Below, piece by piece: positions 6,842-63,801 of a DNA stretch of 64,000 nucleotides. Numbering within the stretch: position 1 is the stretch's first letter; every line of letters begins with the position of its first letter. The stretch lies in NCBI GenBank assembly GCA_964016885.1, contig OZ024750.1:32054001-32118000 (forward strand), given 5' to 3'. Below the pieces are notes generated by a model that saw only the letters and a list, made by a program, of their open reading frames with translations, was not told the origin of the DNA and ran no database searches. A program made the translations under genes and the position numbers. Origin of the DNA: Eledone cirrhosa. Taxonomy: Eukaryota.

Positions 6842-9187
6842 CGCACACACATAATTACACACACACATACACACACACAAATATATAAACACGCATACAC
6901 ACACACACATATATATACATATACATACATATATATGTGTATTTACTTATATACATACATACCTGCGTATATGTGTAAGTGTATTCATATGCAAACCGTC
7001 ATTGTGATTTTGTTTTCAATTTTGTTTGGAAGCTATTTGGCAAGTATCTTTTCCCTCATTTTTATGGCATTAATGTCGATCACCAATTGTGCTCAATTAA
7101 CGTATAACATTGATTATTCATGTATATATGTATATAGCTCTGTTCGTGTTCCATCTAAATATATTGAAAGTGAAATATTTATTTCTGATGCTACGGAAGC
7201 TGAATGAAAGTCTATTGGAGATTGTGAAGTTCAATTGCTAAAACTCCATGGTCTCACAAAATTGGTTACAAACTTAGAATTTCCTCTGAAGATTTAGAAA
7301 CATTTATAATTATATTTGCAACATGAGTTAAATTGTTCAGAAAATTTATGGAAATATTAATAGCGAAATTAATAAATTTGGATCAGCTTCTTTGTCGCAG
7401 GGTGGAATAATATCGTAGGCCTCGGGAGTAAACCTTTCTGTATGCGTCAGATGAAATGTTAGGTACGAGACGTCAAACTAGCTTATAAAATATATCATGA
7501 AGTCCGTGGTAGAACTTTTACAGACGAAGACCACTACTATTTTCCTGAAGCAAGGTTTATGATATGAAATATAATTGCGTGATTTGAACAAAAAAAAATG
7601 TGATGTGATGTGTAGTGACTAAAATAAAGCCAAATTAATTCCTACCTGAGATTGAAATCACAATCGTTTGGAGTTAGACCGAAGAAACCGATCTCAGAGT
7701 TGATTGATTAATGTGCCACACGGTAAACATTCGTATGAAATAATATGCAACATATTGAGTAACTTGATGCAAGTATCTCTTAATTCTGTACATGTAGATT
7801 TGATATCATATTTTAGATTCACATTTAAAATGATTTAGATATAGATTATATACATCAAAAATTCCCGTAAATATATTTTTCCCAGCGGACAGATTCTTAA
7901 TTTTCTTTACATTCTGATTGGTAGAATGTCAAAGTTAAAGTAAGTGATGGGAGAAAATGATATCAATCGTTAAAAGTATTTAAATAAATTCGTATCGCTT
8001 GACTGGTGAAACAATTCTCTCCAGATAAATCCAATAGTTTTAGATATATAAACAAAGTAATCGACCTTCTTGCGAGCATCATTCAACACATGCTACAAGA
8101 ATTGAACAATCGTTAATCAAACATTTCTATCCAGATATCAGTCTCTTTCTACTCAAAGGATATTCCCTCAAACTAAGCAGTTTAAGTTTGAAACATATAT
8201 ACTTCGGAATTGGCAGGTGGAGTTCGTATGGAAGTGTTATGTTTGAAAGAAATATAATGAAATAGAATGAAACAATGTTTAGATGAAACTAAAATTGATT
8301 CCTGGGAATTACTTCTTCTGTAATTGTGTCTGTTTATTATTTATAAAGTTTGCAGACGACATGGCAGAATAATGTAACACAATATTTACTTTCTTCCTTT
8401 TCATATAATATTTCACATCTTGCAAGGGTCGATGTTTTTTCTTTCAGTCAACATTGTACATCAAATAATTTAGAAACTTTCTTCTAAAATGCGTCGATTA
8501 TGATCCCGCACCCGCTCGACAAAACGTTAATTAGTTTAATTTCAGACTTCACGTGTTATCATCAATAATATAATTGCTTATTACATTCATCACATAGGTA
8601 AATGTTTTCTTTAAATATAAATTAGCATAGGGGGAATGCTAGGGATAGCGGTTTAATTTCAGCGAATATGTACACATTACCATTTTTCACGAGTCTCTTT
8701 GTCATCTTTTTGCAATGATATTGACCAAAGAGTTAAGTAGATTACGGTTTTGTTTCAGGAGATACATTACCGGTTTGATCTTAAATTTAGCCATACGAAA
8801 ACGAGTAATTAAAAGCATTGCCGAACACGCTGAAATATGCTGTGCTGAGCATGTAATTTGTCGATGGGCATTAATAGATTAGTTATTGATTGATAAAGTA
8901 GGATTATTCGTTTGAGATTGAATGGTCTAGGAATAGTAAAAGTGCATTCTTGACGTCAGGAGATTGATTTGCTGCTATAAATAACTTGAAGACACCGATG
9001 CTAAATGATTAATGATGTAATCTGTGCAACAGCATAATTCAAGGTTTCCCGTGCCATACCCCCTTCCCACCACATAGACGTTTGTATGTATATATATATA
9101 TATATATATATATACATAAATATGTATGTATGCATATATGTATGTATGGGTGTGTGTATGTATACATGCGTGTGTATGTATACATGC

Positions 9188-9238
<51 letters not shown>

Positions 9239-9289
9239 AATATGTATGCATATATGTATGTATATATGTGCGTGTGTATGTATACATGC

Positions 9290-9340
<51 letters not shown>

Positions 9341-9772
9341 AATATGTATGCATATATGTATGTATATATGTGTGTGTGTATGTATACATGTGTCTATGTA
9401 TGTATATGTACATACTGATATTAGCGGCGTCTCAAAACATAGTAATTTTAGTTTGCCGGGAGGTAAGTCAAGATCCACTACAAATTAACTCCCCAAATTA
9501 TTCACAGTTTGTGTTTTAGTACTGCCGTTATATATATTATTATTATTATTATTATTATTGAATGCCATGGTTGACGGAGGCTCGGCTCTGTAAGGTATAG
9601 TAATTTTTAACCGTTAAAACAATTGTAAATTGTTTAAAACTTGAACCAAATTGTTGATAAAGACACCCTCCTCCTCGTGAGAGGGGTCTTTCTGTCCGTT
9701 ATTTGGCCCTTCGGGGTTAAATAACCAGTTATTGGGGTTTTGTACCCAAAATTTCATTTTAAACAAAAAAAC

Positions 9773-11866
9773 ATGGCTACCAAAAAGAAATTTCATACGT
9801 CACTCCCACTCATTCCGTCTTCTTCTTCCTCAATCATCACTACAGCAGAGAGAAGATTGTCTCTCTCCCTCCCTTCTTTAAATGTGTCTCTCTCCCTCCC
9901 TTCTCTTTCGCAAGCGACGAAAGAAAAGAAAAGTCTCGTGCAAAGCGTGCAAGGTTTCTCCACGACGACGACGACAGCGACGAAACAGGTGTGCAGGAAA
10001 TACGAAAACCCAGTTCATTCGTCTGACGTCAGGAATAATAGCAGTAGCAGCCGTAATAACAACAGCAACAGTGACAATGAAAACAACAGTAGCAGCCGCA
10101 ACAGCATCACCAGCAGCATAAACAACAACAGCATTAGCAGCAGCAACACCAACAACAACCACAGCAACAGCGGCGGAGGCAGTAGTCGTAGTACCTGCAG
10201 CAACAAAAGTACCAGCAGCTCTGACGACAACAACAACAGCAGAGAAAAACCAATCTCATTTGCAGGTATTGCGAAAAACTTGGAAACAATCCTCATAACA
10301 AATGAGGAATTAGAGGAAGCGAAGAAGATGGTGACAAAGAACGGACACCGAGCAATCTGCAAGGCAGCGAAAAATTTTTTCGAAACCCAAGAGCACTGTA
10401 CGGTCACGTACCGTACAGTAAGTACAAAATCCCGTAGGGTGGAAAGAGCCACAGAGGCCCAAATACAAAAAGCCTTGGGGTCTGTGTGGCAGAGGAAAAC
10501 GCACATCACCCGAGGCAAAAAATACGCCACCGTAGACGTACTTTTTGCCACACCCCAGGAGGCAAAGGCCCAATCAGTAGTGACCCTAAGGAGCGAGGAA
10601 ATGGTGTTGGTGCCCTCCTACTGCGGGCAAAAAATTGTGAGGGTCAAACTGACCCACGTCCCCCCCGGAATGACCCCTTCTTGGCTGGCCGCGTCTGTCC
10701 TCGTCGGAATCGAGGACAAAACAACTGTACTGCAAGTACAGAAAAAAGTAAGAGAAGATTGGGTCGGCTCCTCCATTGAGATGCTAATCCAAACCAACCA
10801 GGAGTGCATCGAAGCTATCCCGGATGTGATAGACTTCGATAACGGCACTCAACTGCCCATAAGTGTTGAGGGCAAACGCCCGAAATGCTTTCGCTGTGGA
10901 TCGAAGACTCACCTCAGGGCCTTCTGCAACGAGAAGACCCTGAGAAAGGAGAAAACCCCCCTCCTTCCGAATCCGGCTCCACGGCTACCAGCAACAGGAC
11001 AAGCGGCAACCAGGAACGATAGGTCCGTGGCACCCATACCCACTCCACGGAAATCAAAGACAGCAGCAGCAGTGGAAATATTAACAACAACAACAGCAAT
11101 ACCAAATGCAGCTGCAACAGAGACTCCAGTGCAAACATCACCAACAACAACAAGTGAAAGAGTGGAGCTGGTACCCCTCCCCGACCTTACAGAATCAGAC
11201 ATGGAGTGTGAGGTGGGAGAGGGATGGCAAAAGGTCGCAAGAAGGCACAAACGCAGAAGCAGCGCATCGTCGCCTTTGAAAAGGGAGGAAAGAAATGAGA
11301 AAAGGGTAAAGTCTACTGCAAAGAGACCCACAGCAGCAACACCACCAACACCATCACCACCCACACCAGCACCACCATCACCACCGGCGACAACCCCACC
11401 GCCAACAACACCTTCAACACCACCACCACAAGCACCAACATCGCAAACACAACAACAAAACACACACACCCAGCAACAACGACAAGAAAATAGCAGAACC
11501 ACACCCCACCCCCAGAAAAACAAATGCACGGCAATAAACACACACAACAAGAAACTAATGACTTACATAATTGAACACACAGACATTTCACAACAGGACT
11601 ACATAATACCAGCACCAATCAAAACGCCAACTAACATAAGACTGCTAAAAATAGCACAGAAACAATACACAAACATTAAAACGAAATTCCCCAACGCTGT
11701 TGGTGATTTCAGGGACCTAGGAGGAACCATTAATCGAAGAGTATATTCAGACATTCTCTTAGAAGAGCCGACGACCAGCCGAAGGGACGATTCAACGGTC
11801 CCTTCACCAGACGATCAAGTGAAAAGGGATGTAAAAACCATCCCTCCTCTACCAAAAGTACGGTAA
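9773..11866 (+). CDS. LINE ORF1p, gag-like nucleic-acid-binding protein with CCHC zinc knuckle
   Basis: First in-frame ATG at 9773; CFRCGSKTHLRAFC (Cx2Cx4Hx4C); Ser/Asn-rich N-terminus and Pro/Thr-rich tail; shares ISFA, PSYxGxK and SVEGxRP with ORF1 at 58192. Confidence 0.9.
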   Translation: MATKKKFHTSLPLIPSSSSSIITTAERRLSLSLPSLNVSLSLPSLSQATKEKKSLVQSVQGFSTTTTTATKQVCRKYENPVHSSDVRNNSSSSRNNNSNSDNENNSSSRNSITSSINNNSISSSNTNNNHSNSGGGSSRSTCSNKSTSSSDDNNNSREKPISFAGIAKNLETILITNEELEEAKKMVTKNGHRAICKAAKNFFETQEHCTVTYRTVSTKSRRVERATEAQIQKALGSVWQRKTHITRGKKYATVDVLFATPQEAKAQSVVTLRSEEMVLVPSYCGQKIVRVKLTHVPPGMTPSWLAASVLVGIEDKTTVLQVQKKVREDWVGSSIEMLIQTNQECIEAIPDVIDFDNGTQLPISVEGKRPKCFRCGSKTHLRAFCNEKTLRKEKTPLLPNPAPRLPATGQAATRNDRSVAPIPTPRKSKTAAAVEILTTTTAIPNAAATETPVQTSPTTTSERVELVPLPDLTESDMECEVGEGWQKVARRHKRRSSASSPLKREERNEKRVKSTAKRPTAATPPTPSPPTPAPPSPPATTPPPTTPSTPPPQAPTSQTQQQNTHTQQQRQENSRTTPHPQKNKCTAINTHNKKLMTYIIEHTDISQQDYIIPAPIKTPTNIRLLKIAQKQYTNIKTKFPNAVGDFRDLGGTINRRVYSDILLEEPTTSRRDDSTVPSPDDQVKRDVKTIPPLPKVR

Positions 11867-11901
11867 GTGGTCTTTCCCATCTTTTCCACTCTATTTTAAA
11901 C

Positions 11902-14900
11902 ATGACCTCACTCAGAATAGGCAGCATAAATGCGCGTGGCTTGGGGTCGTCATGGAAGCAGGGTCACCTGCTCAACGACCTCAGGTCACTAAACATAGAT
12001 GTAGTGGCCATCAGCGAGACCAGAATCTCCGAAGCACGGGCCTTCGCACCGATCTTCGGCGGCTACGATGTGTACGCATCTCCCAGCCGTCCTGGATCGG
12101 GTGGAGGAGTTGCTGTGCTTTTTCGGAGAGGTTTGGATCTCGCCATACGGGCCATCTTCCTGGACCCAGAGGGTAAGCTGGTGGTGCTGGACGTGACCAG
12201 CGGAGACGGGCAAGCTTTCAGGCTAGTGGCCGTCTATGCCCCGACAGGAGCAGGGCGGCCTGATTTCTTCCGGCGTCTGGAGACCTTTCTTGGAACGTCC
12301 CGCTCTTTAGTGTTAGTGGGCGACTGGAACGGGATCTTAGATGCACGCTGGGACTGTGTGGGATTAGCGGATAGGGGTGGAGGGTGCAAGAGCCTCACCA
12401 ACCTGCTCAGGCGTTTTGAACTGTCTGACAGGTACCGATTGGATTTCCCGAATGTGCCAATGTGGACTTGGACAAACCGCATAGGGTCATCCAGATCATA
12501 TCTAGATAGAGTATTTTGTAGGGAAATAGATAGGTCTAGCATAGGCTGTCCACAATTCAAGATAGTCAGCTACACGGACCACAAATTCGTGACCTGTGTG
12601 CTTGACTTAGATAGGCTTCATAGACGAGGACCCGGCTACTGGAAGCTAAACGCGTCCTTACCAGCGCGCAAGGCCTACAGAGACCGGATTAGCGAACTAG
12701 TTAAGCGGGCGTTGACGGGGGCCATCGTCAACAACAAGTGGTGGTTTGCTCTGAAAAGAGCGATTAGAATAGAATCGATTAGGTTTAGTAAGGCTTTAGC
12801 AATAGAGAAAAATAGAGCAGAGGGAGAACTAGTTAGAAAATTAGACGAGGCGCTTAGCAAAGGCATTGCGACCGACGTGCTTGCGGCGAAATTGGCCCTT
12901 GACCAATTCTTCAATGCAAAGCACGAAGGCTGCGTTGTCAGAGCTAGGGTGCGTGCTCTCAGACACGAGGGGACGAAAGCCGTTCAATGGGCCCGAGTGG
13001 CGGAGGCGCGTCGTGGCAACAAAGCCACGATCCGGTCTTTGGTGGACCACGACGGGCGCATGCTACTCGATCCCGGGCAAATGTGTGAAGCTTTTCAGCG
13101 ACACTTCGCTCAGCTGTTCGGGGGCAGCGGGGGGCCGGGTAGAGGGATGGACTTTAGTGTCTACCTCGACGGACTGCCGCGGCTCTCGGCCACTGAGGCG
13201 AGGTGTTGCGAAAAGCCGATAACAGCCGCTGAAATACGGGAGGCAATGACTGGCTGCACAAGGGGTAAATCGCCTGGTTTGGATGGTCTGCCCTATGAAC
13301 TTTACGTACAGATGCCAGACTTGTTCGGAGGCCTCTTGGCGGACGTCTACTGCAACTGGCAACAGAACGGGAGAATTCCCAGTTCTGTGAGCCGAGGAGC
13401 GGTGGCACTGCTGAGAAAGGATCCGAACAAGGGGGATAACATAGACAATTTCCGGCCCATAACTCTGCTAAACACAGAGTTTAAGATTTTGGCCAAGGTG
13501 CTAGCAAAGAGGTTGGCGCTTGTCGTTGGTGGTCTGGTGGGAGAGGCGCAGACATGCGCCATCCCCGACAGATCCATCCACGACAACCTCCACCTCATGC
13601 GATACATCGTAGAGAGGGTAGCTAGGGAACCTGGCACGGGTGGGTCCTTGATCAATTTAGATCAGTCGAAAGCTTTCGATAGGGTCGACCATCGTTACCT
13701 AGCGGCAGTCCTGAGGGCGGCTGGCTTTGGGCCCGTCTTCAGAGGCTGGATCGCTGCCATGCACAGCGACATCTGCTCTGTGGTGAGAGTGAACGGTCAC
13801 CTGTCGGAACCGTTCAACATCATGCGCTCGGTCCGCCAAGGATGTCCCCTCTCGTCCCTCTTGTACGTATTGACTCTCGAGCCATTACTGCACAAACTGG
13901 AGACGTTGAGGGGAGTCCCGCGCGAACTAGGATGCGGAAGATCCGTGTCAGCATATGCCGACGATGTCACCGTAGTGGTGTCGAACGCCAAACACATCGA
14001 GGCGATCGGCACTACACTAAGAGAATACGAAGCGGTGACAGGAGCAATGATCAACCAGGAAAAGTCAGTGGGCCTGCAGCTCGGCACCTGGAGAGGCAGG
14101 TCCATGCCGTCCAACAGCGTCGTCGGGCGCTGGACGGACGGACCGGTTAAATTGCTAGGGGTCTGGTTCGGTCCGGACCTCCAGACGGACAAAAACTGGG
14201 ACGAGGTGACGAGCAGGGTGGCTTCTCTCACCCAGAAATGGGCGGAGAGGAAGCTATCCCTGAAAGGTCGAGCGGAGGTGGCTAACGCGTACATCGCGTC
14301 TGTCATCTGCTACCGCCTAACCGTCGTACCTTGTCCTAAGCCTCGCCTGACTGCGCTGGAGCGTTTGCTCTTTCGCTTTTTGTGGAAGGGACGTGCTCCG
14401 ATGGTCAGGCGGTCCATCTGTTGTCAACACCCGCTACGTGGAGGGCTGGGCATGCCGTGGCTGATGATGCGCAGGCACGCGCTCAGGCTACGACATCTCC
14501 ACCTCTTCCTCGACGGTGATCAGGTGTGGTCGCCGTTTGCTAGACGCGTTTTTCCCCAGCTCGTTTCCTTGACGGAGCTGCAGTCCTGGGTCAAGCGAAG
14601 ACCGAGAGGGAGCGCCTGGAGACTGGAATGTCTTCAGGCGCTCACAGCCCTCGACCAATTGGGCAATGTGATCGGTGGAAACTCCACCTCGGCGTTCTAT
14701 AGAGGATTAGTGGAGGGGAAGAGCGACGACGTACTTGGGGAAACTCTAGGCGTCGACGAAAATCAACTAGCCAATCTCTTCGGAAGAACTTTCGGGCCAG
14801 GGCCTATGGACAACTTCCAGAAATCTCTGGCCTGGCAGTGCTACCGAGGAGCCTTGCCAGTTCGGGATAAACTCTACAGGCATGGAGGTGCCGTCAGCCG

Positions 14901-15321
14901 GGCATGTCCGAGATGCGCGCAGGGCGACGAAACCGTCCTGCACGCACTCGTCCAGTGTCCGAAAATTGCTGACTTGTGGGTTTATGTCGAACACCTGCTG
15001 TCGCGTTTAGGACGGATCCAGCTATCATCTGAGTCTATCGTGAGGATTGCCCCGCCCTCCTCCTTTAGCCGGGAAGGGCAGGCAGTTTTTATCTGTCTGG
15101 TGGCCATGGCGAAAGAGATAGTATGGTGGACACGTTTGAAAGGGCTGAAGACGAGCACTTACCTCTTCGGTGATGCTCTGATTGACTTTTTCAAATTTCA
15201 TTTGAAAAGGAAAATCAGAGTAGAGAAGGAAGTCCTCTCTTCCCAGCATTTTGTTGAAAGATGGGTGAGAGAAGCAAGAATGGCCCGAGTGAATGGGCCG
15301 ACTCTGAGTATATATCTGTAA
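11902..15321 (+). CDS. LINE ORF2p: APE endonuclease, reverse transcriptase and C-terminal zinc finger (1139 aa)
   Basis: Endonuclease motifs SINARGL, ISETR, VYAP, GDWN, YLDR, TDH; RT motifs KSPGLDG, FRPITLLN, LDQSKAFDRV, RQGCPLS, YADD; C-terminal CPRC...ETVLHALVQC. Confidence 0.97.
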   Translation: MTSLRIGSINARGLGSSWKQGHLLNDLRSLNIDVVAISETRISEARAFAPIFGGYDVYASPSRPGSGGGVAVLFRRGLDLAIRAIFLDPEGKLVVLDVTSGDGQAFRLVAVYAPTGAGRPDFFRRLETFLGTSRSLVLVGDWNGILDARWDCVGLADRGGGCKSLTNLLRRFELSDRYRLDFPNVPMWTWTNRIGSSRSYLDRVFCREIDRSSIGCPQFKIVSYTDHKFVTCVLDLDRLHRRGPGYWKLNASLPARKAYRDRISELVKRALTGAIVNNKWWFALKRAIRIESIRFSKALAIEKNRAEGELVRKLDEALSKGIATDVLAAKLALDQFFNAKHEGCVVRARVRALRHEGTKAVQWARVAEARRGNKATIRSLVDHDGRMLLDPGQMCEAFQRHFAQLFGGSGGPGRGMDFSVYLDGLPRLSATEARCCEKPITAAEIREAMTGCTRGKSPGLDGLPYELYVQMPDLFGGLLADVYCNWQQNGRIPSSVSRGAVALLRKDPNKGDNIDNFRPITLLNTEFKILAKVLAKRLALVVGGLVGEAQTCAIPDRSIHDNLHLMRYIVERVAREPGTGGSLINLDQSKAFDRVDHRYLAAVLRAAGFGPVFRGWIAAMHSDICSVVRVNGHLSEPFNIMRSVRQGCPLSSLLYVLTLEPLLHKLETLRGVPRELGCGRSVSAYADDVTVVVSNAKHIEAIGTTLREYEAVTGAMINQEKSVGLQLGTWRGRSMPSNSVVGRWTDGPVKLLGVWFGPDLQTDKNWDEVTSRVASLTQKWAERKLSLKGRAEVANAYIASVICYRLTVVPCPKPRLTALERLLFRFLWKGRAPMVRRSICCQHPLRGGLGMPWLMMRRHALRLRHLHLFLDGDQVWSPFARRVFPQLVSLTELQSWVKRRPRGSAWRLECLQALTALDQLGNVIGGNSTSAFYRGLVEGKSDDVLGETLGVDENQLANLFGRTFGPGPMDNFQKSLAWQCYRGALPVRDKLYRHGGAVSRACPRCAQGDETVLHALVQCPKIADLWVYVEHLLSRLGRIQLSSESIVRIAPPSSFSREGQAVFICLVAMAKEIVWWTRLKGLKTSTYLFGDALIDFFKFHLKRKIRVEKEVLSSQHFVERWVREARMARVNGPTLSIYL

Positions 15322-15582
15322 ACTAAAGGTGGAAAACTGGGAGAGGGCACTTGCCTTGGTGGTCAGGGTCATTGTGGCTTTTTACTGGGCTTTCTCCACA
15401 AATGTCCCTCCGAAGTCTCCCCCCCTATTGGGGAATTTTTCATTGTTATTTTCATTGTTATTTTTGTTACATCCTCTGTTTTTGTTTTTTTACACGCAGA
15501 AATGCCCATTTGTACCGTCCTGCATTGTCCTGCACTGTCCTTAATGTCTACTTTATGTAAACCCTTGTGGTTAATAAAGAAA

Positions 15583-15639
<57 letters not shown>

Positions 15640-39387: not shown

Positions 39388-41964
39388 CTGTTTGTGTGTG
39401 TGTACACATATATATATGAGCCAGGAGTTTTAGTTTTATACGTAAGACATTTTAACCACGGTGATGTGCAGCGCTTGTTAATTTTCTGTTAAAATACGCA
39501 AACGCACATATATATTTTATATACGCACGCACAAACACCCACCCACATTATAGAGGATGGGTCACCAACTAATTTGGGCTGTGGTATGCTCAATACCTGT
39601 CCTTCTTCAGATCAAAGAAGGAACGAAATTTGACCGGAAAAACCCTATAATTAATTGCAAGATCCATCTTTCTGAGGAACTGCTTGTTCTTCTACAAGCC
39701 ACACTACTCCACCATACAAAATCTTATGTGTCCTCCTATTGCCATCACAGACAGGTAGACTTCCTGTGCCACTATCAACTGCCTAATGGGAAAATATCAA
39801 TGAGTTATCTTCCTTGACAGTTAAACAAAGGGAGTTCTTACATTGCATCCTAATAGAGCCTTATACTTGAACAGCTCCTCTTTGGGGCCTCACTAGTTCC
39901 CTGCAAAAAAATCCCATCAAGTTGTCTTGCATCTTCATTTGAAACAAAGCTTACCAGCAACGAAGACTGACCATATTTCCAGGCATAATATAAACGTCAC
40001 TACGACTCAATGTACAACCTACGACACATTCTCTTCTACAATGTCAAACAAGAATTTGAAAATCTATCGAATGTGTTTCTTGTAAAGAAAATAATCATTG
40101 TTTATATTTAGAACAGTTTTGTTTTTCAAAGTACTGGGACTTTAATCATGAAACCTTATTTAATCATGTGGTTTTCACGTTCCCAGACGTCGGAGTGATT
40201 TCTTTGATCTTTCACATTCTTAGATACCAGACTTAATATTCAATTGGATTAATGTCTGCAATTTGTGTTGACCATTCAACCCGATCTATAAGAAAACATT
40301 ATGTAATTATTTTTGTATCATGGCTGCTACCATTATGTGATGTAGAAGATAACTTTCTTCTGTTTTATCATAGTGTATCATTTCTGAGCTGATTAAGTGA
40401 AAGTTTGAATAGAAAGAAAAAAAAAGAATTGCTTAGAGATGTTCAGTGTTATACATAATATCTTAGTATAATATCGATATGTGCTCCATAACATAAGGAC
40501 TATCGATTATAACATCCTTCACCTCACCACAGATTAGGGATCTTCGTTGAGTTTCCCATTGGTTCATTATTATTTTGTAATTGGCTGCGAAATTTTGCCT
40601 TACTCTGTCAATTCAAGAAGGTTGTGAATTGACAAAATCCTTACTCTTCTTGGCTGTCATCGCTCTGAATTAAAATCCCATCCAGGTCTACTGTGCCCCT
40701 CATTATTTAAACAGATTGGTAATACTCTAGTTGGGTATACTTTAAAGGGGGGTTTTCGTGCTAACAATACACAAAATAATATTGTTTTTACATTAAATAA
40801 TGGGCATGTTTGAGGTAACTGTGCATTATCGATGTTGATTTTTGTCAGGGATGAGTATTTGTATTTTCATCTCTAAAATTCCAGCAACATTTACAGCCAC
40901 TCCTGCTTTGACTTAATTAAAATCACGTAAGGATTTTTAGTCTATTATTAAAATGTATCGCTAGTCTTTATTTTTTGATTTCATATGCAATTGATGTAAA
41001 TATAACGTAGCTTTAACACAGCTATCTAATTAGTTTTTAAAATAAATTGTATACCAGCGTTATTGCCAATATTTTATAAAATATCCAAATCTTTTTTTCT
41101 TTTTTTTTTTTTGCTTGAATTAAATTTACGGAGAAAAAAAACGATAGGCAAAATTCAAGAATTATAACAGACATTATGGGATAGTAATATAATTGGTTCT
41201 AATTTAAGCTCAAAGCCAGCAATTCTAGAGGAAGATGAACATCGATTTAAATCAATCCCACTAATTGTTTGGTGCCTTTTATTATGGATTTCGTAAAGAC
41301 GAAAGTCAAAGTTGACCGCATTAACCTCGACAATGTTTAAACACTGAAGCTGGAACAAAGGACATGAAGCATTTTCCCGACGCTTTTCCGTTTCAGCCAA
41401 TCCACTTCTTTGTGCAATATTAATATGATAAAACCAAAATATATATAACATGTAATTGTGATAATATAAATTGTGGGATAGGAGTAAATATTAGAATAAG
41501 AGAAAAACATATAGATAAGGAAACAAAGATTAAAATACAAAAACAAATAAAAAAAGAAGACTAATGAAAGGAAAGAATAAAATTATTGAAAATCAGTCAA
41601 TGATCTGGGTACTGCATAAAAATACATATCTTGAATAGCAATAGCAATAAATTATGAGATAAGAAGAAGGTGGACATTAATTTATGAAATAATTATGACC
41701 CGAGATAAAATACTAGATGTTTTCATATCAATATTACAAAGTACACATTATATAAACAGCAATCATTTAGTTTGGGGATCAAATTTCAAACCTAGAGTTT
41801 AATCAACAACGTGGAAAATAGGTTTTGATTAATATAAATCAACACATATATGAAACACTTAACAGTATACTTAAATGGATTTAAAATAACTAAAGTAATG
41901 TATATATCTATAATGTAAGTAATTAAACACAGAGTGTTTAAAATATAGCTCATATGATTTGACG

Positions 41965-42769
41965 ATGATGATGATGGAATATACTCCAAATCTTCCACGG
42001 AGATTTTGCCCTGTTATTCTTCAACACAACTCACAAAACGATATTTCGTTTGCCAGTTCAAAACTTCCTTCATCACTACAAATACACCCGTATTTCAATA
42101 CTTCTCGAAATGGAAATATTTTTAATGAACATATATTTCGAGTTCCGTTACAGACAGAGGTTTTTAATTCTTACCCTGTGATATCTAAACGGTATGAATG
42201 TAGCAATTACAGTGAAATGGATGTACCCTTTTACAGACCAAGCATGCATCAAACATGGGAAAAGTTTCGAAGTAACAGAGATCAATCCTCTCAGAATTAT
42301 CCGAATTTAGGGGCTCGTAGTAACTTCAATGACATAACATCTCACGAATATGTACATAATAATAATGAAGACATAAATTGTTTCTATCCAAGGCGCCATT
42401 TAACGTCTTCGACAACAACCTTTGTTAAGCCCATGTGTCAAGGAATATATTCGCGTAACGCGTATGATAATGAGAAAACAAACAAAAGTCAACAAATCAA
42501 TATTCATTCAAAACATTCGGATGATAATCAACATCAAATAAAATCGATATCTAAACTTCCCCTAGCCATCGATATGCTCAGACGTTCCGGAAGGTTCCTT
42601 GAGAAGATGAATCTGTATGTAAATCAAATTGACAAGCCTACACTTGAAAAGAATTCCGACGTGGAAAGGAGTGGTAAACAACTCCAGGGAAGGATAAATA
42701 AATGTCCCTATTGCAATAAATTCAAATCAAGTCCAGCACAACTAAAGATTCATTTACGAATTCACACAG
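41965..42769 (+). CDS. Exon of host C2H2 zinc-finger protein gene (partial)
   Basis: About 270-codon non-repetitive ORF in AT-rich DNA ending CPYCNKFKSSPAQLKIHLRIHT-G; CAG|GTTTGT donor at 42770 splits the Gly codon of the TGEKP linker. Start uncertain (ATG run from 41965 or an upstream acceptor). Confidence 0.8.
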
Positions 42770-43429
42770 GTTTGTAGCTTTTTATATTACAATTTCTTCT
42801 ACATTACATCATTAGTACCAAGCAATCTACAATGTAGTTTTCTTAAATCGTATTGATAAACAATATTTCTAATTTATTGAATTTTATTTATTCCGTATAG
42901 TTCTCTTTCTATTTCTCCTCCTATCTCATATTCTATCATCCGATATGGAAATACCGCCAGAAGAATAATTAAGTCATATTTCTTACTACATCAAAATTTA
43001 AAATAATATATATCGTCATTGTTCTTCCGTATTATGTTTCCTTGTTGACATTTCGCCTCACATAATATACGTGTGCAATATAAATACATAAAGCAATCTA
43101 ACACAAATACAAACACAAACACAAACACAAACGTTTTCACACACAAACAATACAATATATTAATATATAATCTATACATAAATGAGATAATATGAATAAA
43201 TATCAAGTTATAGAAATATTATTTTGTAGTTTCTATATATGTTCTTCGATATGTATAGGTACAAATATTTGAAAATTGCTGAATGTGTGTGTCAATACGT
43301 GAAATGCGAGAGATGCCTGATGTCTGTTGACAGTATTTTTGTCTAGAAATGCCCCCAGAATATTAATAAAACCGGAGATTATTTCTCTACAGGTCTGTAT
43401 ACTTGATTGATATATTTCAGGAGTGGGTG

Positions 43430-57119: not shown

Positions 57120-57210
57120 CTGGACTAGCCGTCGAAACGGATTGAGCTCTGCCGTTGGGGTCATACTTTTTCCTATTTCCCACTTTACTACCCTAAGTAT
57201 TGAGAACTAT

Positions 57211-57243
<33 letters not shown>

Positions 57244-57430
57244 ACAAAGGAATTGTGGTAAGGAACCAGATGGACCATAACGCACCAGAGTACTCAATAC
57301 TTAGGGTAGTAGAGTGCGAAATAGGAAAACGTCTGACCCCGACGGCAGAGCTCAACCCGTTTCGACGGCTAGTCCAGAAATAGCCGTCGAATCGGGTTGA
57401 GCTCTGCCGTCGTGGTCATACTTTTTCCTA
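57116..57430. mobile_element. Two opposed copies of the 36961 fold-back family separated by (TA)n
   Basis: 57116-57205 (+) and 57241-57430 (-, arms 57322-57371 and 57381-57430). Confidence 0.8.
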
Positions 57431-57507: not shown

Positions 57508-58191
57508 GTGTAATAATAATAAATTTGAAGACTAAAATCCAAAGAGGGCTCGATAAGGTTAAATATATATATCAAATATATAAGAACCGTAGACCAAATA
57601 TTTATTAAAATAACAGATGTATGTGTGTGTGTGTATGTGTGTATGTGTGGATGTGCATTTGGTACAGCACAGTAATAAAGTATAATTATGAAAAGTAATA
57701 AGGACATTGTTTTCAACTTGGGCAAACAAAATATAATAAATGGTTGTTTATGATTTGATTTAAGCACTTTTGTCTTTCAGAAGACTTAGTTATTCCAATG
57801 GTTTCCTATGTCTGTGTGAAAATATACATCGGAAAACTCTGGCTGGACTATCCTTTGAATAACATCTAAATATATAAATCGATGCGTCTTATGGAAGACG
57901 AAAACACTATATTAAAATTGTAATCTTGGTATCTATCTATCTATCTATCTATCTATTTATCGTCTCAGCTGTCGTCTGTTCTACAGTGTGGATGTCATTC
58001 ACTTCGCACAGAAGTTTTGTTCAAATTTATTGAGGAAATTTTGTGAGTTCAAACTTAATTTTGATACAATTGTGTAGCTTGACCCTCCGTCTGAACTGTC
58101 AGGCGGTGGGTCAGCTCATCTTTACCCCTCCTAGAGGTGAAAAACCTGTTTTAAAAAATTTTGTGTAAAAACTTTCAATCGTCTAACAGAA

Positions 58192-60093
58192 ATGTTAAAC
58201 GCAGCGAACGAAAATAGTGGTGGGGGGACAGCGGTAAGAGTTGTAAGCTCGCACGCTTTAGTCCTCCCTTCCTTCCCAACTAACGTCATAGAGAAGGAAG
58301 GAAAAATGAAAATAAAAACGGACGAATCTGCGGAGAAAAAATTAAATGACGAAAACATAAATCTGAACTTGGATTCCAACAACGAAAAAAAAAAATTTGA
58401 AAAATTGCATGACAATACTAATAACACAAACAAAGACACAACAAACAAAAAAATAACAGTTGAAAATAACATCATATCAGAAAACAAAGCAGACGACAAT
58501 ATTTCATTTGCACAGAAAACAAAGAAATCTTTGACTTATATAGCGGAAAACATTTCAGATGTGGTACGAAGGATCACGGACGCAAAACAATACATAAGTG
58601 AAGGTGAGAATGGTATTTTATTGGTAAAAATGCCTCAAGAATTCACGAAAGACATTGAAAGCCGAACGGTCAAGTTTCGGACCATCAACAACAGTACAAA
58701 AAAACCTGAACAGCCTTCTCAAGCAGATATCAAAACAGTACTCACAGAAGTACTGAATGAAACAACTTTCATAAGAAAAGACAGACTGTATGGAAGCCTA
58801 GCAATTATCATGAAGAACGAATCGGCGGCAAAAAAATGTGCTTTGTCACCGATTCGTTCGAAAAATTTCACCTTTTATCCATCTTATATGGGAAAAAAAA
58901 CTCAACGCATATGGCTGGATGCAATGATGCCAGATGTGGACTACTGCTGGCTCATAGCTGGCTTCATCGATCCAGTGAATGACAACGTGATTTCCATTGG
59001 GAAAACCACAGGCAATGCGTTCAGTGGAACAGGTATAGAGCTGGTAGTACAAATGAAGCCTGAACGCATCGCCCAAATACCCGACAGAATCCTATTAGAG
59101 GACCACGGGTATATAAACATTAGCGTGGAGGGGAGAAGGCCGTCCTGCCATATCTGTGCAGGCAGAGGGCACCTGAAGGCCGCTTGTCCCCAACTCAACA
59201 AAAAGAAAACCCTGCTACAAACACCAGCTCCACCACCACCACCACAACAGATAAACAAACAACAAAACTCAGTCCCACCCAACCCGTCCCTCAGTAACAC
59301 CACAACACCACCACAACACAAACAGTCACAACACATTACCCCAAAACAAAATACAGGCCCACCCAACCTCTCACTCAATAAAACAACACAACCACCGCAG
59401 ACACAACACACAAGACAGTCTAACATAGTGACATCCATCTCCCCCACAAAGAAAACCAACACGGAAACATTACCAGCAAACATACCTCTTCCCTCCAACA
59501 CTGAAGATAACCCAACGAATTCGGAGGAAGAAACGGAGTCCTTCAGACAGATTAAAAGGAAAAAAAGAAAACATGTGCAAAACACACAAGGACAAACAAC
59601 CCCCACCCAAATCGCAACACAATCTAACAAAACAGAAAACACCCCTCCAGCAACAAACAAAACCAAACCTGCCCCTCCCCTCTTCGAAACACTCACACCA
59701 TCGGAAAAAAAGACATTACACTATACTTACATCAACAGAAACAATAATAAATTAAATGAACTCATATACAATAATCCTTCGGTACAAACCGAAGGTGTAA
59801 ACTTTGTTTCATCAGAAAACCACCCACATTTAAAACTAATAAAAATCCCAATGAACCTCTACCAAAAACTAAAAAAGGATTTTAAGGAGGACGTAGGACC
59901 ACCCTCTGTCAAACCCATAAACCGCGTCCTACTAAAAAGCTTTCCCCCTCCCCTTCCCCTCCCCAACACAACTCCAAACACCCCAACCCCACCACACACC
60001 GACGACCCCACACCACCACAAGACACCCCTTCACCCAACACCCCCGACCCCATGGAAGTCGTGCAACCCGAACCCCGGGAAGCGGAAAGGTAG
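58192..60093 (+). CDS. LINE ORF1p with CCHC zinc knuckle (633 aa)
   Basis: CHICAGRGHLKAAC; SVEGRRP and PSYMGKK align to copy A ORF1; Pro/Thr/Gln-rich tail. Confidence 0.88.
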   Translation: MLNAANENSGGGTAVRVVSSHALVLPSFPTNVIEKEGKMKIKTDESAEKKLNDENINLNLDSNNEKKKFEKLHDNTNNTNKDTTNKKITVENNIISENKADDNISFAQKTKKSLTYIAENISDVVRRITDAKQYISEGENGILLVKMPQEFTKDIESRTVKFRTINNSTKKPEQPSQADIKTVLTEVLNETTFIRKDRLYGSLAIIMKNESAAKKCALSPIRSKNFTFYPSYMGKKTQRIWLDAMMPDVDYCWLIAGFIDPVNDNVISIGKTTGNAFSGTGIELVVQMKPERIAQIPDRILLEDHGYINISVEGRRPSCHICAGRGHLKAACPQLNKKKTLLQTPAPPPPPQQINKQQNSVPPNPSLSNTTTPPQHKQSQHITPKQNTGPPNLSLNKTTQPPQTQHTRQSNIVTSISPTKKTNTETLPANIPLPSNTEDNPTNSEEETESFRQIKRKKRKHVQNTQGQTTPTQIATQSNKTENTPPATNKTKPAPPLFETLTPSEKKTLHYTYINRNNNKLNELIYNNPSVQTEGVNFVSSENHPHLKLIKIPMNLYQKLKKDFKEDVGPPSVKPINRVLLKSFPPPLPLPNTTPNTPTPPHTDDPTPPQDTPSPNTPDPMEVVQPEPREAER

Positions 60094-60126
60094 GTCTCTA
60101 CACTCTCCTTTGGCTCTGCCGCCCAC

Positions 60127-63100
60127 ATGGATGTGTTAAGAGTAGGATGTTTGAATGCACGTGGCCTGGGCTCAACTTGGAAGCAAGCAAAGCTTCTAAA
60201 TGACCTCAGGTCATGTAGTATAAATGTAATGGTTATCTGTGAGACTCGAATCAGCGTCATGCGGCAGCTGGCCCCCACCTTCGATGACTTTGAGGTGCAT
60301 GCATCTCTCTGTCAACCTGGAGGTGGGGGTGGGGTTGTCGTGCTGCTGCAAAAACACCTGGGTCTTGCCGTACAGGTTGTGCACTCGGACCCGGAGGGTC
60401 GTTTGTTGGTGCTAGACGTTGGCAGTAGTGAAAGTGCGGCCTTGAGACTGGTCGCCGTCTACTCCCCTTTCGGAGCTGAACGGCCCGACTTCTTCCAGCG
60501 TTTGGAGACTTTTCTGGGAACGTCGCGTTCCCTGCTTCTAGCGGGGGATTGGAATGACATCCTGGATGCACGTTGGGACTATGCAGGAGCATGTCCTAAT
60601 AGAGGGGGGTGTAACAGCCTCAAGGGGTTACTCGACCGTTTTAACTTGGTCGATAGATATCGACTAGATTTTCCAACTGTGCCTACCTGGACTTGGAGAA
60701 ACCACAGTGGTCAAGCTAGATCGTACTTAGATAGATTCTTAGTTAGAAGTAAGGATAGGGACATATTAAGCTGTCCAGAAATGCGAACGGTTGGCTACAC
60801 GGATCACAAATTAGTGACCTGCGTGGTCAATCTCGAGAAAACACATAGACAGGGTTCCGGTTACTGGAAACTTAATTTGTCTTTACCGGCAAAAGAGACT
60901 TACAGAAACCGGATTAGCAGATTAGTTAAGGAGAGGTTGACGGGTGCAATCGTCAACAACCGATGGTGGGCATCTCTCAAAAGAGAGATTAGAACAGAAT
61001 CAATAAGTTATAGCAAGATGTTAGCTGCCAATAGGAATAGAAACGAGAAAGAATTAACAGGTAAATTAGAAGAGGCAATCAAGAGCGAAGATGTGGCCAG
61101 AGTGCTGGCATCGAGGACGGCCTTGAACCAGTTTTTCGATGCAAAGCATGAAGGCTGCGTCATTCGAAGTAAAATACGTGCTCTAGGTAATGAGGGGGCC
61201 AAAGCCGTTGGATGGGCCCGCGTGACAGAAGCTAAAAGTGGAAATCGATCCACCATCCGGTCGTTGCAAGACGAAGATGGACGAGTGATCCGGGAGCCTA
61301 AGCAGATGTGCGAGGCCTTTCAAAAGCACTTTGCCCGATTGTTCGGGGGAGGCGAGGGTCCGGGCCGGGGCGTGGATTTCGGTCCATACCTCGACGGCCT
61401 GCCGCGTCTCTCGAACAAAGAGGCAGAGTCCTGCGAGGGACCAATCTCGGCTGATGAGATCGGAGATGCGCTAAGCCAATGCAGCAGACGCAAATCTCCA
61501 GGTCTCGATGGTATACCTTACGAACTTTATTTAGCAATGCCGGTCTTCTTCTCCGAACTCCTCGAAGCGGTCTACTGCAATTGGCAGCAGAACGGGAGAA
61601 TTCCTTGTTCTGTAGCCAAGGGCGTAGTCACGCTGGTGAGGAAGGACGAGAACAAGGGGGATAGTATAAATAATTTTCGGCCCATAACCCTGCTAAACAC
61701 AGAGTTAAAGATTTTGGCCAAGGTGTTAGCAAAGAGGTTGGCGCTTGTCGTGGGTGGCCTGGTGGGAGATGCGCAGACATGTGCTATCCCATCCAGGTCC
61801 ATTCACGATAACCTCCACCTCATGCGATACATCATAGAGAGGGTTGGCAACAAACCCGGCTCGGTGGGGCCCTGATCAACTTGGTTCAGTCTAAGGCCTT
61901 CGATAGGGTCGACCATGGTTACCTGGATGCGGTGCTAGCGGCGGCTGGGTTCGGTCCTGTTTTCAGAGGCTGGATCACTGCCCTACATAGCAACCACATC
62001 TGTTCTAGGATCAAGGTGAACGGCTACCTTTCGAAGCCGTTCGAAATCACACGATCCATTCGACAGGGGTGCCCTCTCTCCTCCCTTCTGTACGTATTGA
62101 CTCTCGAGCCTTTACTGAGGAAGTTGGAGTTGTTGCAGGGTATCCCCCTGGAACCAGGATTGAGCAAAGCGGTGTCGGCCTACGCCGATGACGTAACAGT
62201 AATGGTATCAACCGACTCGGAGATCGAGGCGATCGGTACCTTACTGGAGGAGTACGAAAGGTTGTCAGGAGCGAAACTGAACCGGGAAAAATCCATCGGG
62301 CTGCAACTCGGAACGTGGAGAGGCAAACCGATGCCTCCTGACGGTGTCGTCGGACACTGGACGGAGGGCCCGGTAAAGTTGCTTGGGGTCTGGTTTGGAC
62401 CGGACCTCCAGGTGGAAAAGAACTGGAACGAGGTTACGAACAAGGTGTTTGCACTAACCCAGAAATGGGCCAAGTGTAAGCTGTCCCTAAAAGGCCGGGC
62501 GGAGGTGGCGAACATTTACATAGCGTCCGTCACTTACTACCGCCTGACTGTCGTGCCTTGCCCTAAGGAAACACTCACCACCATGGAACGCATGCTCTTC
62601 CAATTTCTTTGGAAGAAGCGTCCTCCTATGGTGAGAAGATCCATCTGCTGCCAACAACCTTCGAAAGGAGGGCTGGGGATGCCGTGGTTGATGATGCGTA
62701 GGCACGCATTAAGGCTACGGCACCTACAGGTATTCCTCACTGGTCAACCGGTGTGGGCTCCGTTCGTGAAACGAGCCTTTCCGAGACTCGTCTCACTCAC
62801 CGAGCTACGGTCCTGGGTCAAGCAAAGATCCGGAAAACTGGGAGACTGGCACACTGAGTGTGCTCAGGCGCTCAGGGCTCTCTGGCAAGCGGGCCGGGCC
62901 ATCGGTGGAGAATCCACCTCATCATTCTATAGAGGGCTGGTGGCTAGCAGGGGCGATGACACCCTTGGAGAGTCGCTGGACATGGAAGAAGACGAACTGG
63001 CCAGCCTGTTCGGTAGGACTTTCGGCCCAGGACCAATGGACAACTTCCAGAAGTCACTGGCCTGGCAGTGCTACCGAGGGGCTCTACCCGTTCGAGAGAG

Positions 63101-63537
63101 GCTCTACAGACACGGGCGCCCGGGCAGGGATCCCTCAAAAAAGATTTGCCCTAGATGCGTGCGTCACGAAGAAACCGTAGCGCACGCATTGGTGCAATGT
63201 CCGGGCGTGGCTGATCTGTGGGGCTGCGCCGATTAAATTGACCGCCGAGTCCGTGGTGACAATCAAACCGCCTCCCCTCTTCACAAAGGAAGCAAAGGCG
63301 GTTTTTCTGTGCGTAATAGCCATGTTGAAAGAGGTTGTTTGGTGGACACGATCGAAAGGTCTGAGGTCAGGCAACTTCCTCTCTGGCCATAGTCTGGTCT
63401 ACTTCTTCCGATATCACTTCGGAAGAAGGATAAGAATGGAGAGAGAGGTGCTTGGCCACAGGCAGTTTTATGAAAGGTGGGTGATAGTGGCGAGAATGGC
63501 TCGTGTAAATGGGCCTTCTCTGTATACCATCCTGTAG
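60127..63537 (+). pseudogene. LINE ORF2 (APE-RT-zinc finger) broken by two frameshifts
   Basis: Colinear with 11902-15321; 1-nt deletion near 61861, about 26-nt deletion near 63231, and LDQSKAFD changed to LVQSKAFD. Confidence 0.92.
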
Positions 63538-63801
63538 GTAAAGAAGTAAAGGAGAGGGGAGCACCTTCTCCATATGCTCCCCGGGCAAAGGATTGCACAC
63601 TTTTTCGGGGGTGTGTGCAACCCCCATCACGTCCCCTCCCTTTTGAGGTTATTTTCGATTATTTTCATGTTACACCCTTTTTACTCGATTATATGTAAAC
63701 TCCCCCTTTGTATTTGTCCCTTCTTTTTATGCCTTTATGGTAAATAAAGAAATCTATCTATCTATTTATCGTCTGTGACCCTCCCTCCCTCTCTCTCTCG
63801 C

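Follow-up and report, generated by a model that had tools for sequence, protein, structure and literature searches.

A splice-donor-like signal on the ORF1 stop codon of LINEs in Eledone cirrhosa hints at an undescribed control of their two genes

What purpose could a splice-donor-like signal serve when it lies across the stop codon of the first of two adjacent genes? This question is raised by a 64,000-nucleotide (nt) stretch of the Eledone cirrhosa genome (assembly GCA_964016885.1, contig OZ024750.1, positions 32,054,001 to 32,118,000 of the forward strand), referred to here as the window. The window is low in GC content and rich in microsatellites, and it carries two related long interspersed nuclear elements (LINEs) on the + strand, on which all the features of the elements given below lie. 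These are copy A (~9560-15585), whose two open reading frames (ORFs) are both intact, and copy B (~57966-63751), a full-length Tx1/L1-like LINE. In both, a sequence resembling a 5' splice site overlaps the ORF1 stop codon, and this splice-like signal hints at an undescribed control of the two genes.

In copy B, ORF1 (58192..60093, ATG at 58192) ends AGG TAG, and its TAG (60091-60093) falls inside the 5' splice-site-like motif AAG|GTAGGT (60087..60095, GT at 60090). This motif is followed by a pyrimidine-rich, AG-free inter-ORF tract (60096..60126); the spacer is 76% C+T, a content in the top 0.9% of equal-size windows within the element. The donor's own AG aside, the first AG lies at 60139-60140 and opens codon 5 of ORF2 (ATG 60127, MDVLR), where an AAG in Leu4-Arg5 forms a weak proximal candidate acceptor (60138..60140). 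Excision of 60090-60140 (51 nt) would leave an Arg and keep the frame. Copy A repeats this layout over 11860..11915, with a donor ACG|GTAAGT (GT at 11863), a pyrimidine tract, the ORF2 ATG at 11902 and a codon-5 CAG whose AG occupies 11914-11915, giving a 53-nt span that is in phase 2 and in frame, as in B. A sequence-only reading had described this arrangement earlier, and re-reading the sequence bears out its coordinates in B, the stop-overlapping donor AG|GTAGGT, the AG-free pyrimidine-rich spacer, the codon-5 AG, the 51-nt in-frame excision giving Arg, and the agreement of donor position, phase and acceptor position between the copies (51 versus 53 nt). It had also held that neither the spacers nor the ORF1 C-termini can be aligned, and comparison with shuffled sequences agrees: the similarity of the spacer cores does not exceed that of shuffles (p 0.76), and that of the last 19 ORF1 codons barely does so (p 0.12). 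The frame relation of ORF1 to ORF2 differs as well, with spacers of 35 nt in A and 33 nt in B.

The two copies are nevertheless homologs, being 65% identical in ORF2, 29% identical in the ORF1 core and alike at 175 of 353 fourfold sites, and a C-terminal ORF1 motif can still be aligned ~40-70 residues upstream of the stop. Because of this homology, the recurrence of the signal represents retention from an ancestor and not separate invention; treating A and B as independent recurrences was rejected on the ORF2 and ORF1 identities.

The donor beats chance, and the codon-5 acceptor does not. Among the TAR contexts of the window, the + strand has GGTARGT in 5 of 2264 and the - strand in 3 of 2386 (8/4650 over both strands); on its sense strand, each element has a single one of these eight matches, and it lies at the ORF1 stop. 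The B donor agrees with U1 at 7 of 9 positions, a score reached by only 2 of 285 GTs in B, and the A donor is matched or bettered by only 2 of 305 GTs in A. The four donor bases outside the stop would be kept by chance with a probability of ~0.5-6%, according to the local identity taken, and an AG-free run of 43-46 nt has a chance of 4-5%. As for codon 5, all four aligned ORF2 N-termini (A, B and the proteins P0160 and P0161) have the Arg before [IV]G, and both codons start with AG at 30 of the 61 Arg positions common to the two ORF2s. Since such pairs are close to an even split, the codon-5 AG is weak evidence; it was rejected as strong evidence, the conserved Arg being enough to explain it.

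These figures bear on the idea that a short intron between the ORF1 stop and the codon-5 AG fuses ORF1p to the endonuclease and reverse transcriptase (RT), with only unspliced RNA being copied into the genome, which is judged unlikely. In A and B alike, the AG that comes first after the donor keeps the frame even though the spacer frames differ, as a fusion would require, yet a common codon-5 AG is expected about half of the time. The acceptor of A is favourable, being a CAG with 8 of 12 pyrimidines upstream that ranks 7 of 263 AGs on an ad hoc acceptor score, whereas that of B is an AAG in a purine-rich context, with 6 of 12 pyrimidines upstream, no YTNAY and a rank of 32 of 257 on the same score. 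The pyrimidine tract of B adjoins the donor, not the codon-5 AG; viewed as a U2-type intron, 60090-60140 has the GT donor but lacks a branch point and a pyrimidine tract beside a YAG, with A being the better of the two copies. Small Drosophila introns can carry pyrimidines between donor and branch point, which counts for the fusion, but 42-53 nt is at or below the usual lower limit of animal introns, which counts against it; no figure for the minimum intron length of octopus was found in the literature. None of the relatives seen has lost the ORF2 Met, which the proposed intron would remove; in A, B, P0160 and P0161 it stands 3-4 codons ahead of the Arg.

Contigs of four of the six runs found by a run search (three organisms, none on record as RNA) were aligned to 59500-60800 at 80% likeness, and they contain a third family, here called C. 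It appears in runs X1 and X5, which come from two organisms, as a contig end before 60125, and is ~82% like B in ORF2. Its junction reads GAG|GTAAGT, followed by 20 AG-free, mostly pyrimidine bases and then AC ATG. Over 60134-60153 family C has no listed mismatch to B, versus ~18% elsewhere (p ~0.02), a reading that rests on the rows listed and on depth arithmetic that makes family C the sole cover of X5 in this interval. On these rows, family C probably keeps the codon-5 AG, and its span would then be 42 nt. An A-like X5 contig keeps the ORF2 Met and has CAC AGG at codons 4-5; these codons, like the unbroken match of family C, speak for the fusion.

A contig of another family, X1 record 2, aligns over 59958-60057 and then over 60139-60312, resuming exactly at the codon-5 AG, and its unaligned middle is at most ~73 of its 347 letters. 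It may be a spliced form, as the fusion would predict, or it may have a diverged spacer, since divergent codons 2-4 explain it equally well.

The sequence-only reading had proposed a search for the splice junction, which was carried out on contigs only: among the joints listed (three rows) in the contigs of the four runs there is no 51-nt GT..AG skip. Run X2 has a junction depth of 7,000-12,500, with one depth-12 joint listed elsewhere. Because X2 is so deep and has no 51-nt joint, intronless genomic copies of B appear to be rare or absent, within the limit that contigs drop rare variants. This matters for the fusion, since spliced L1 RNA does retrotranspose in cis and leaves genomic copies, the SpIREs (spliced integrated retrotransposed elements), which amount to ~1.8% of full-length L1 (PMC5860796), yet no such skip is listed in any of the four runs.

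Among the 150 listed of 548 ORF1 relatives found, no ORF2 sequence or domain is present on the ORF1 match, contrary to what a fusion would lead one to expect, and searches with the ORF2 N-terminus returned 4 and 2 proteins, none fused to ORF1. P0001 was considered as a junction protein and rejected, as it is the model of a host gene that has a piece of ORF2 in its interior. A word-indexed search for longer ORF1 relatives, which is a weak search, gave none among 8000 candidates, and no DNA of relatives was present in the metagenome, viral or prokaryote genome contigs searched. The proteins also carry traces of the donor: the ends of P0010 (..QGK*) and P0014 (..EGKS*) are what a G|GTAAGT read in phase 1 would encode, a match at the protein level only. 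Such a trace occurs in 2 of 5 close ORF1 proteins with the C-terminal motif, against a background of 87 in 1365 positions (p ~0.04); P0033, a fragment that matches the motif pattern without a homologous tail, was excluded from this count. The phase-1 fit of P0010 and P0014 suggests that families may differ in donor phase, a variation incompatible with a fixed fusion at codon 5. P0007 and P0057, two other close relatives, diverge from each other near the C-terminal end and may be damaged copies.

The earlier claim of selection on the signal thus divides. Its donor part is strengthened by the perfect AG|GTAAGT and new pyrimidine tract of family C and by the trace in P0010 and P0014, but its pairing of the donor with the codon-5 AG loses ground to the conserved Arg, the kept Met, the length of 42-53 nt and the lack of a listed 51-nt joint. 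The alternatives named alongside that claim, an Arg5 kept for protein reasons and a U1-binding role, now look at least as likely as the fusion.

Another way of linking the two proteins would be stop readthrough in B, and perhaps in C, where ORF1 and ORF2 would form one frame across a stop-free spacer. The 33-nt spacer of B is indeed open, and C would keep the frame too if its ORF1 ends at the TAA, but A carries the same motif out of frame. Termination is efficient in the contexts TAG G and TAA G, and the sequence downstream has no CARYYA-type motif, which counts against readthrough, as does the kept ORF2 Met. Readthrough is very improbable.

The account preferred here, tentatively and from sequence, is that a U1-binding 5' splice site on the ORF1 stop is under selection, that ORF2 is translated from its own AUG on unspliced RNA, and that the donor is either joined to a far acceptor or bound by U1 only. 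Being present in A, B and family C, the donor and pyrimidine tract look conserved amid sequence turnover. The family would keep on its ORF1 stop a site for the U1 small nuclear ribonucleoprotein, made up of the 5' splice site and the downstream pyrimidine tract, and the codon-5 AG would be mostly a by-product of the conserved Arg. ORF2p would be produced from unspliced RNA at its own AUG by termination-reinitiation, as in L1 and SART1. The spacer kept in the copies, the kept Met and the fact that spliced L1 RNA leaves copies suggest unspliced RNA as the most likely source of the ORF2p used for transposition. TURBS (termination upstream ribosome-binding site) motif 1 (TGGGA) is absent within 100 nt upstream of the ORF1 stops of A and B, and folding of the junction RNA, run without a shuffle control, gave no structure common to the two. 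If ORF2 is reached by reinitiation, the donor needs another job.

One such job would be splicing to a far acceptor at or after the ORF2 end, which would generate a short ORF1-only mRNA in the manner of copia and BARE1; taken alone, this is again unlikely, marginally more so than the fusion. In B, the distal candidate acceptor consists of a pyrimidine tract and a TAG that is the ORF2 stop, followed by G TAA (63515..63540), and joining it to the donor recreates Arg-stop. Only 1 of the 257 AGs of B, that of the ORF2 stop, combines a YAG, a pyrimidine fraction of at least 0.7 and at least 20 AG-free nt, and 5 of the 257 give Arg-stop on joining to the donor; the thresholds were chosen by the authors post hoc, and the acceptor score is ad hoc. 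In A, the top-ranked acceptor ends a U-rich AG-free tract of 82 nt in the 3' untranslated region (UTR) with CAG (15416..15499). The A donor joined to 15499, which lies 74 nt before AATAAA, would encode ORF1p plus 19 residues and then a stop.

As an observation in its own right, the TAG stop of B ORF2 is the best 3' splice-site look-alike in B, and it is followed by GTAAAG, so that it resembles an acceptor and a donor at once.

The other job would be U1 binding without splicing, shielding full-length RNA from premature polyadenylation, which by itself is more doubtful still. Cryptic AATAAA and ATTAAA hexamers cluster in ORF1, the nearest being 190-350 nt upstream of the donor, and judged from composition they have no obvious U/GU-rich downstream elements.

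Several points weigh against a selected U1 site combined with reinitiation at ORF2. The DNA junctions number only three (A, B and C), all of them kin by descent; the contig end of family C does not show its ORF1 frame, and the runs compared include none on record as RNA. Three of the five close ORF1 proteins (P0007, P0024 and P0057) and all four distant ORF1 types are without the donor trace. The distal acceptors are not homologous in position: the ORF2 stop of A is TAA, and B keeps a U-rich tract but not the UTR AG of A. Acceptor look-alikes arise easily in U-rich UTRs, and the score that ranks them is ad hoc. The gain from an ORF1-only mRNA is also unclear, because the ORF1p of LINEs is already in excess and mainly cis-acting (PMC5860796). 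Finally, the sequence G TAG GT recurs at the ORF2 stop of B (63534-63539), where the exon side is poor. G-stop-GT is thus not confined to ORF1 stops, being present at one of the two ORF2 stops, and a portion of the motif can be a product of chance.

This last point bears on a further alternative, in which the signal has no function: the stop would sit in an ancestral G-rich context, the spacer would be pyrimidine-rich for reinitiation or for protection from decay, and ORF2 would be expressed by ordinary reinitiation. It is somewhat unlikely, although the pattern was chosen after the fact, the majority of other ORF1 ends are at odds with a donor, and no splice product is seen in the contigs compared. 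A and B share 50% of fourfold sites, so that four free bases would be kept by chance in up to ~6% of cases, and the G TAG GT at the B ORF2 stop fits the same explanation. Nevertheless, the ancestor would have needed a motif found in ~0.2% of TAR contexts, retained in three lineages that differ in spacer sequence and length, and A, B and C all match a donor on the exon side and at +5/+6. Overall, little separates the four leading single paths.

Judged by its sequence, copy B is a recently inserted, full-length, now broken LINE of L1/Tx1 type. It is flanked by a 23-nt target-site duplication (TSD), whose 5' copy (57943..57965) lies within a (TATC)n tract and exactly matches the 3' copy (63752..63774), and its poly(A) signal AATAAA is at 63743..63748. 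As in L1/Tx1 LINEs, there is a TSD with a poly(A) signal or simple-repeat end and there are no long terminal repeats (LTRs); AATAAA stands at both 3' ends. B looks young because an X1 contig of 1241 nt differs from it at only 3 of 640 aligned bases. ORF1 of B (633 aa) has a CCHC-knuckle core, a low-complexity linker and a conserved C-terminal motif, and ends Arg-TAG. ORF2 (60127..63537; APE endonuclease, RT and zf-RVT by Pfam) is broken twice, by a frameshift near 61865 and, near 63225-63236, by a short deletion accompanied by a stop, both located by tblastn against A. In copy A, ORF1 (9773..11866, 697 aa) ends Arg-TAA, and ORF2 (11902..15321, 1139 aa) is intact. Pfam matches in ORF2 are PF03372, PF00078 and PF13966, and a PDB search gives human L1 ORF2p as the closest solved relative (E 1e-52, versus 1e-21 for R2). 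A CX2CX4HX4C pattern is visible in ORF1, neither ORF1 has a Pfam match at E<=0.001, and the Atlas neighbours of B ORF1, which serve as a lead only, are CCHC and ZCCHC3-RNA-binding-like clusters (0.87-0.91). The ORF1 relatives that carry a species name belong to Octopus sinensis, O. bimaculoides, O. vulgaris and Argonauta hians, which by themselves would make an octopod the probable host.

The C-terminal ORF1 module LYxxLKxxFPxDVG, which follows a long low-complexity linker at ~59750-59900 in B and 11560-11710 in A, also occurs in P0010, P0014, P0024, P0147, P0155 and P0158 and is thus common to distant ORF1s. As single copies, B is inserted in (TATC)n and A in (ATT)n; the flanks of A lie at 9535-9559 and from 15587 onward, and the two copies differ in microsatellite target yet share the 3' end AATAAAGAAATC. 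The A and B families are possible target-specific Tx1 lineages in octopus. ORF1 or ORF2 pieces lie inside the host gene models P0001, P0064, P0070, P0095 and P0043, some named from Octopus species, and reflect either exon capture or an annotation artefact. Elsewhere in the window, a 284-aa open frame at 41923-42777, with a C2H2 zinc finger and an HTG linker at its end and no Pfam match at E<=0.001, is probably an exon of a host zinc-finger gene. Upstream of B, three copies of a ~60-nt sequence, in both orientations, lie between (TA)n tracts (57120-57420); the sequence is possibly a small repeat or a miniature inverted-repeat transposable element.

In overall design, the elements resemble the Tx1 clade of the L1 group (Tx1L, Kibi, Koshi and the L1-Tx1 families of O. 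vulgaris), which have two ORFs, an ORF1 with a CCHC pattern, an APE-RT-zf ORF2, a TSD and microsatellite insertion; the targets of Kibi and Koshi are (TC)n and (TTC)n (PMC4494074). A literature search, without most subscription papers and bioRxiv supplements, found no Tx1 or L1 element with a splice donor on the ORF1 stop, and a supplement of PMC13282606 does not mention ORF1 and has splicing only in its reference list. Human L1 and SART1 share with these elements a bicistronic RNA, a short spacer, an ORF2 AUG of its own and termination-reinitiation (PMC5972666). The splice sites described for human L1, however, lie in the 5' UTR and ORF1, are dead ends and do not fall on the ORF1 stop (PMC5860796).

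The closest functional parallels come from LTR elements and viruses. Copia and BARE1 (PMC3735527) and EVADE (PMC12786077) produce a subgenomic Gag-only RNA by splicing near the end of the structural ORF to obtain an mRNA for that protein, while the unspliced RNA is replicated. They differ in being LTR elements with one gag-pol ORF, whereas the LINEs considered here have two ORFs with a stop and a splice that is only predicted. Ogre, of the Ty3/gypsy group, has an intron between its ORFs (PMC3735527 and PMC12786077, as secondary mentions), which is the design of the fusion model; it is an LTR element with packaged RNA instead of cis-preference, whereas the LINE span is 42-53 nt and contains a conserved start codon. 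In HIV (human immunodeficiency virus), U1 at a downstream donor blocks cleavage and polyadenylation, and the HIV-1 major splice donor and the papillomavirus late 5' splice site are similar in that a donor-like site suppresses nearby polyadenylation (PMC3826338). These systems are viral, and the LINE hexamers differ in having no obvious U/GU-rich downstream elements.

The control of ORF2 expression and of the ORF1p:ORF2p ratio has been worked out for few LINEs, such as L1 and SART1. The family has been recently active in octopus: in O. vulgaris, a supplement table holds ~80 L1-Tx1 families, and 13 L1-Tx1 families are reported with 421 young copies (PMC13282606). If the reading holds, a selected donor on the ORF1 stop would add to LINEs a form of splicing or U1 control known mainly from LTR elements and viruses. 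An ORF1-only subgenomic splice, if true, would also be new for LINEs within the literature searched, and a fusion intron, if that were the correct explanation, would give a non-LTR element a strategy like that of Ogre and depart from cis-preference.

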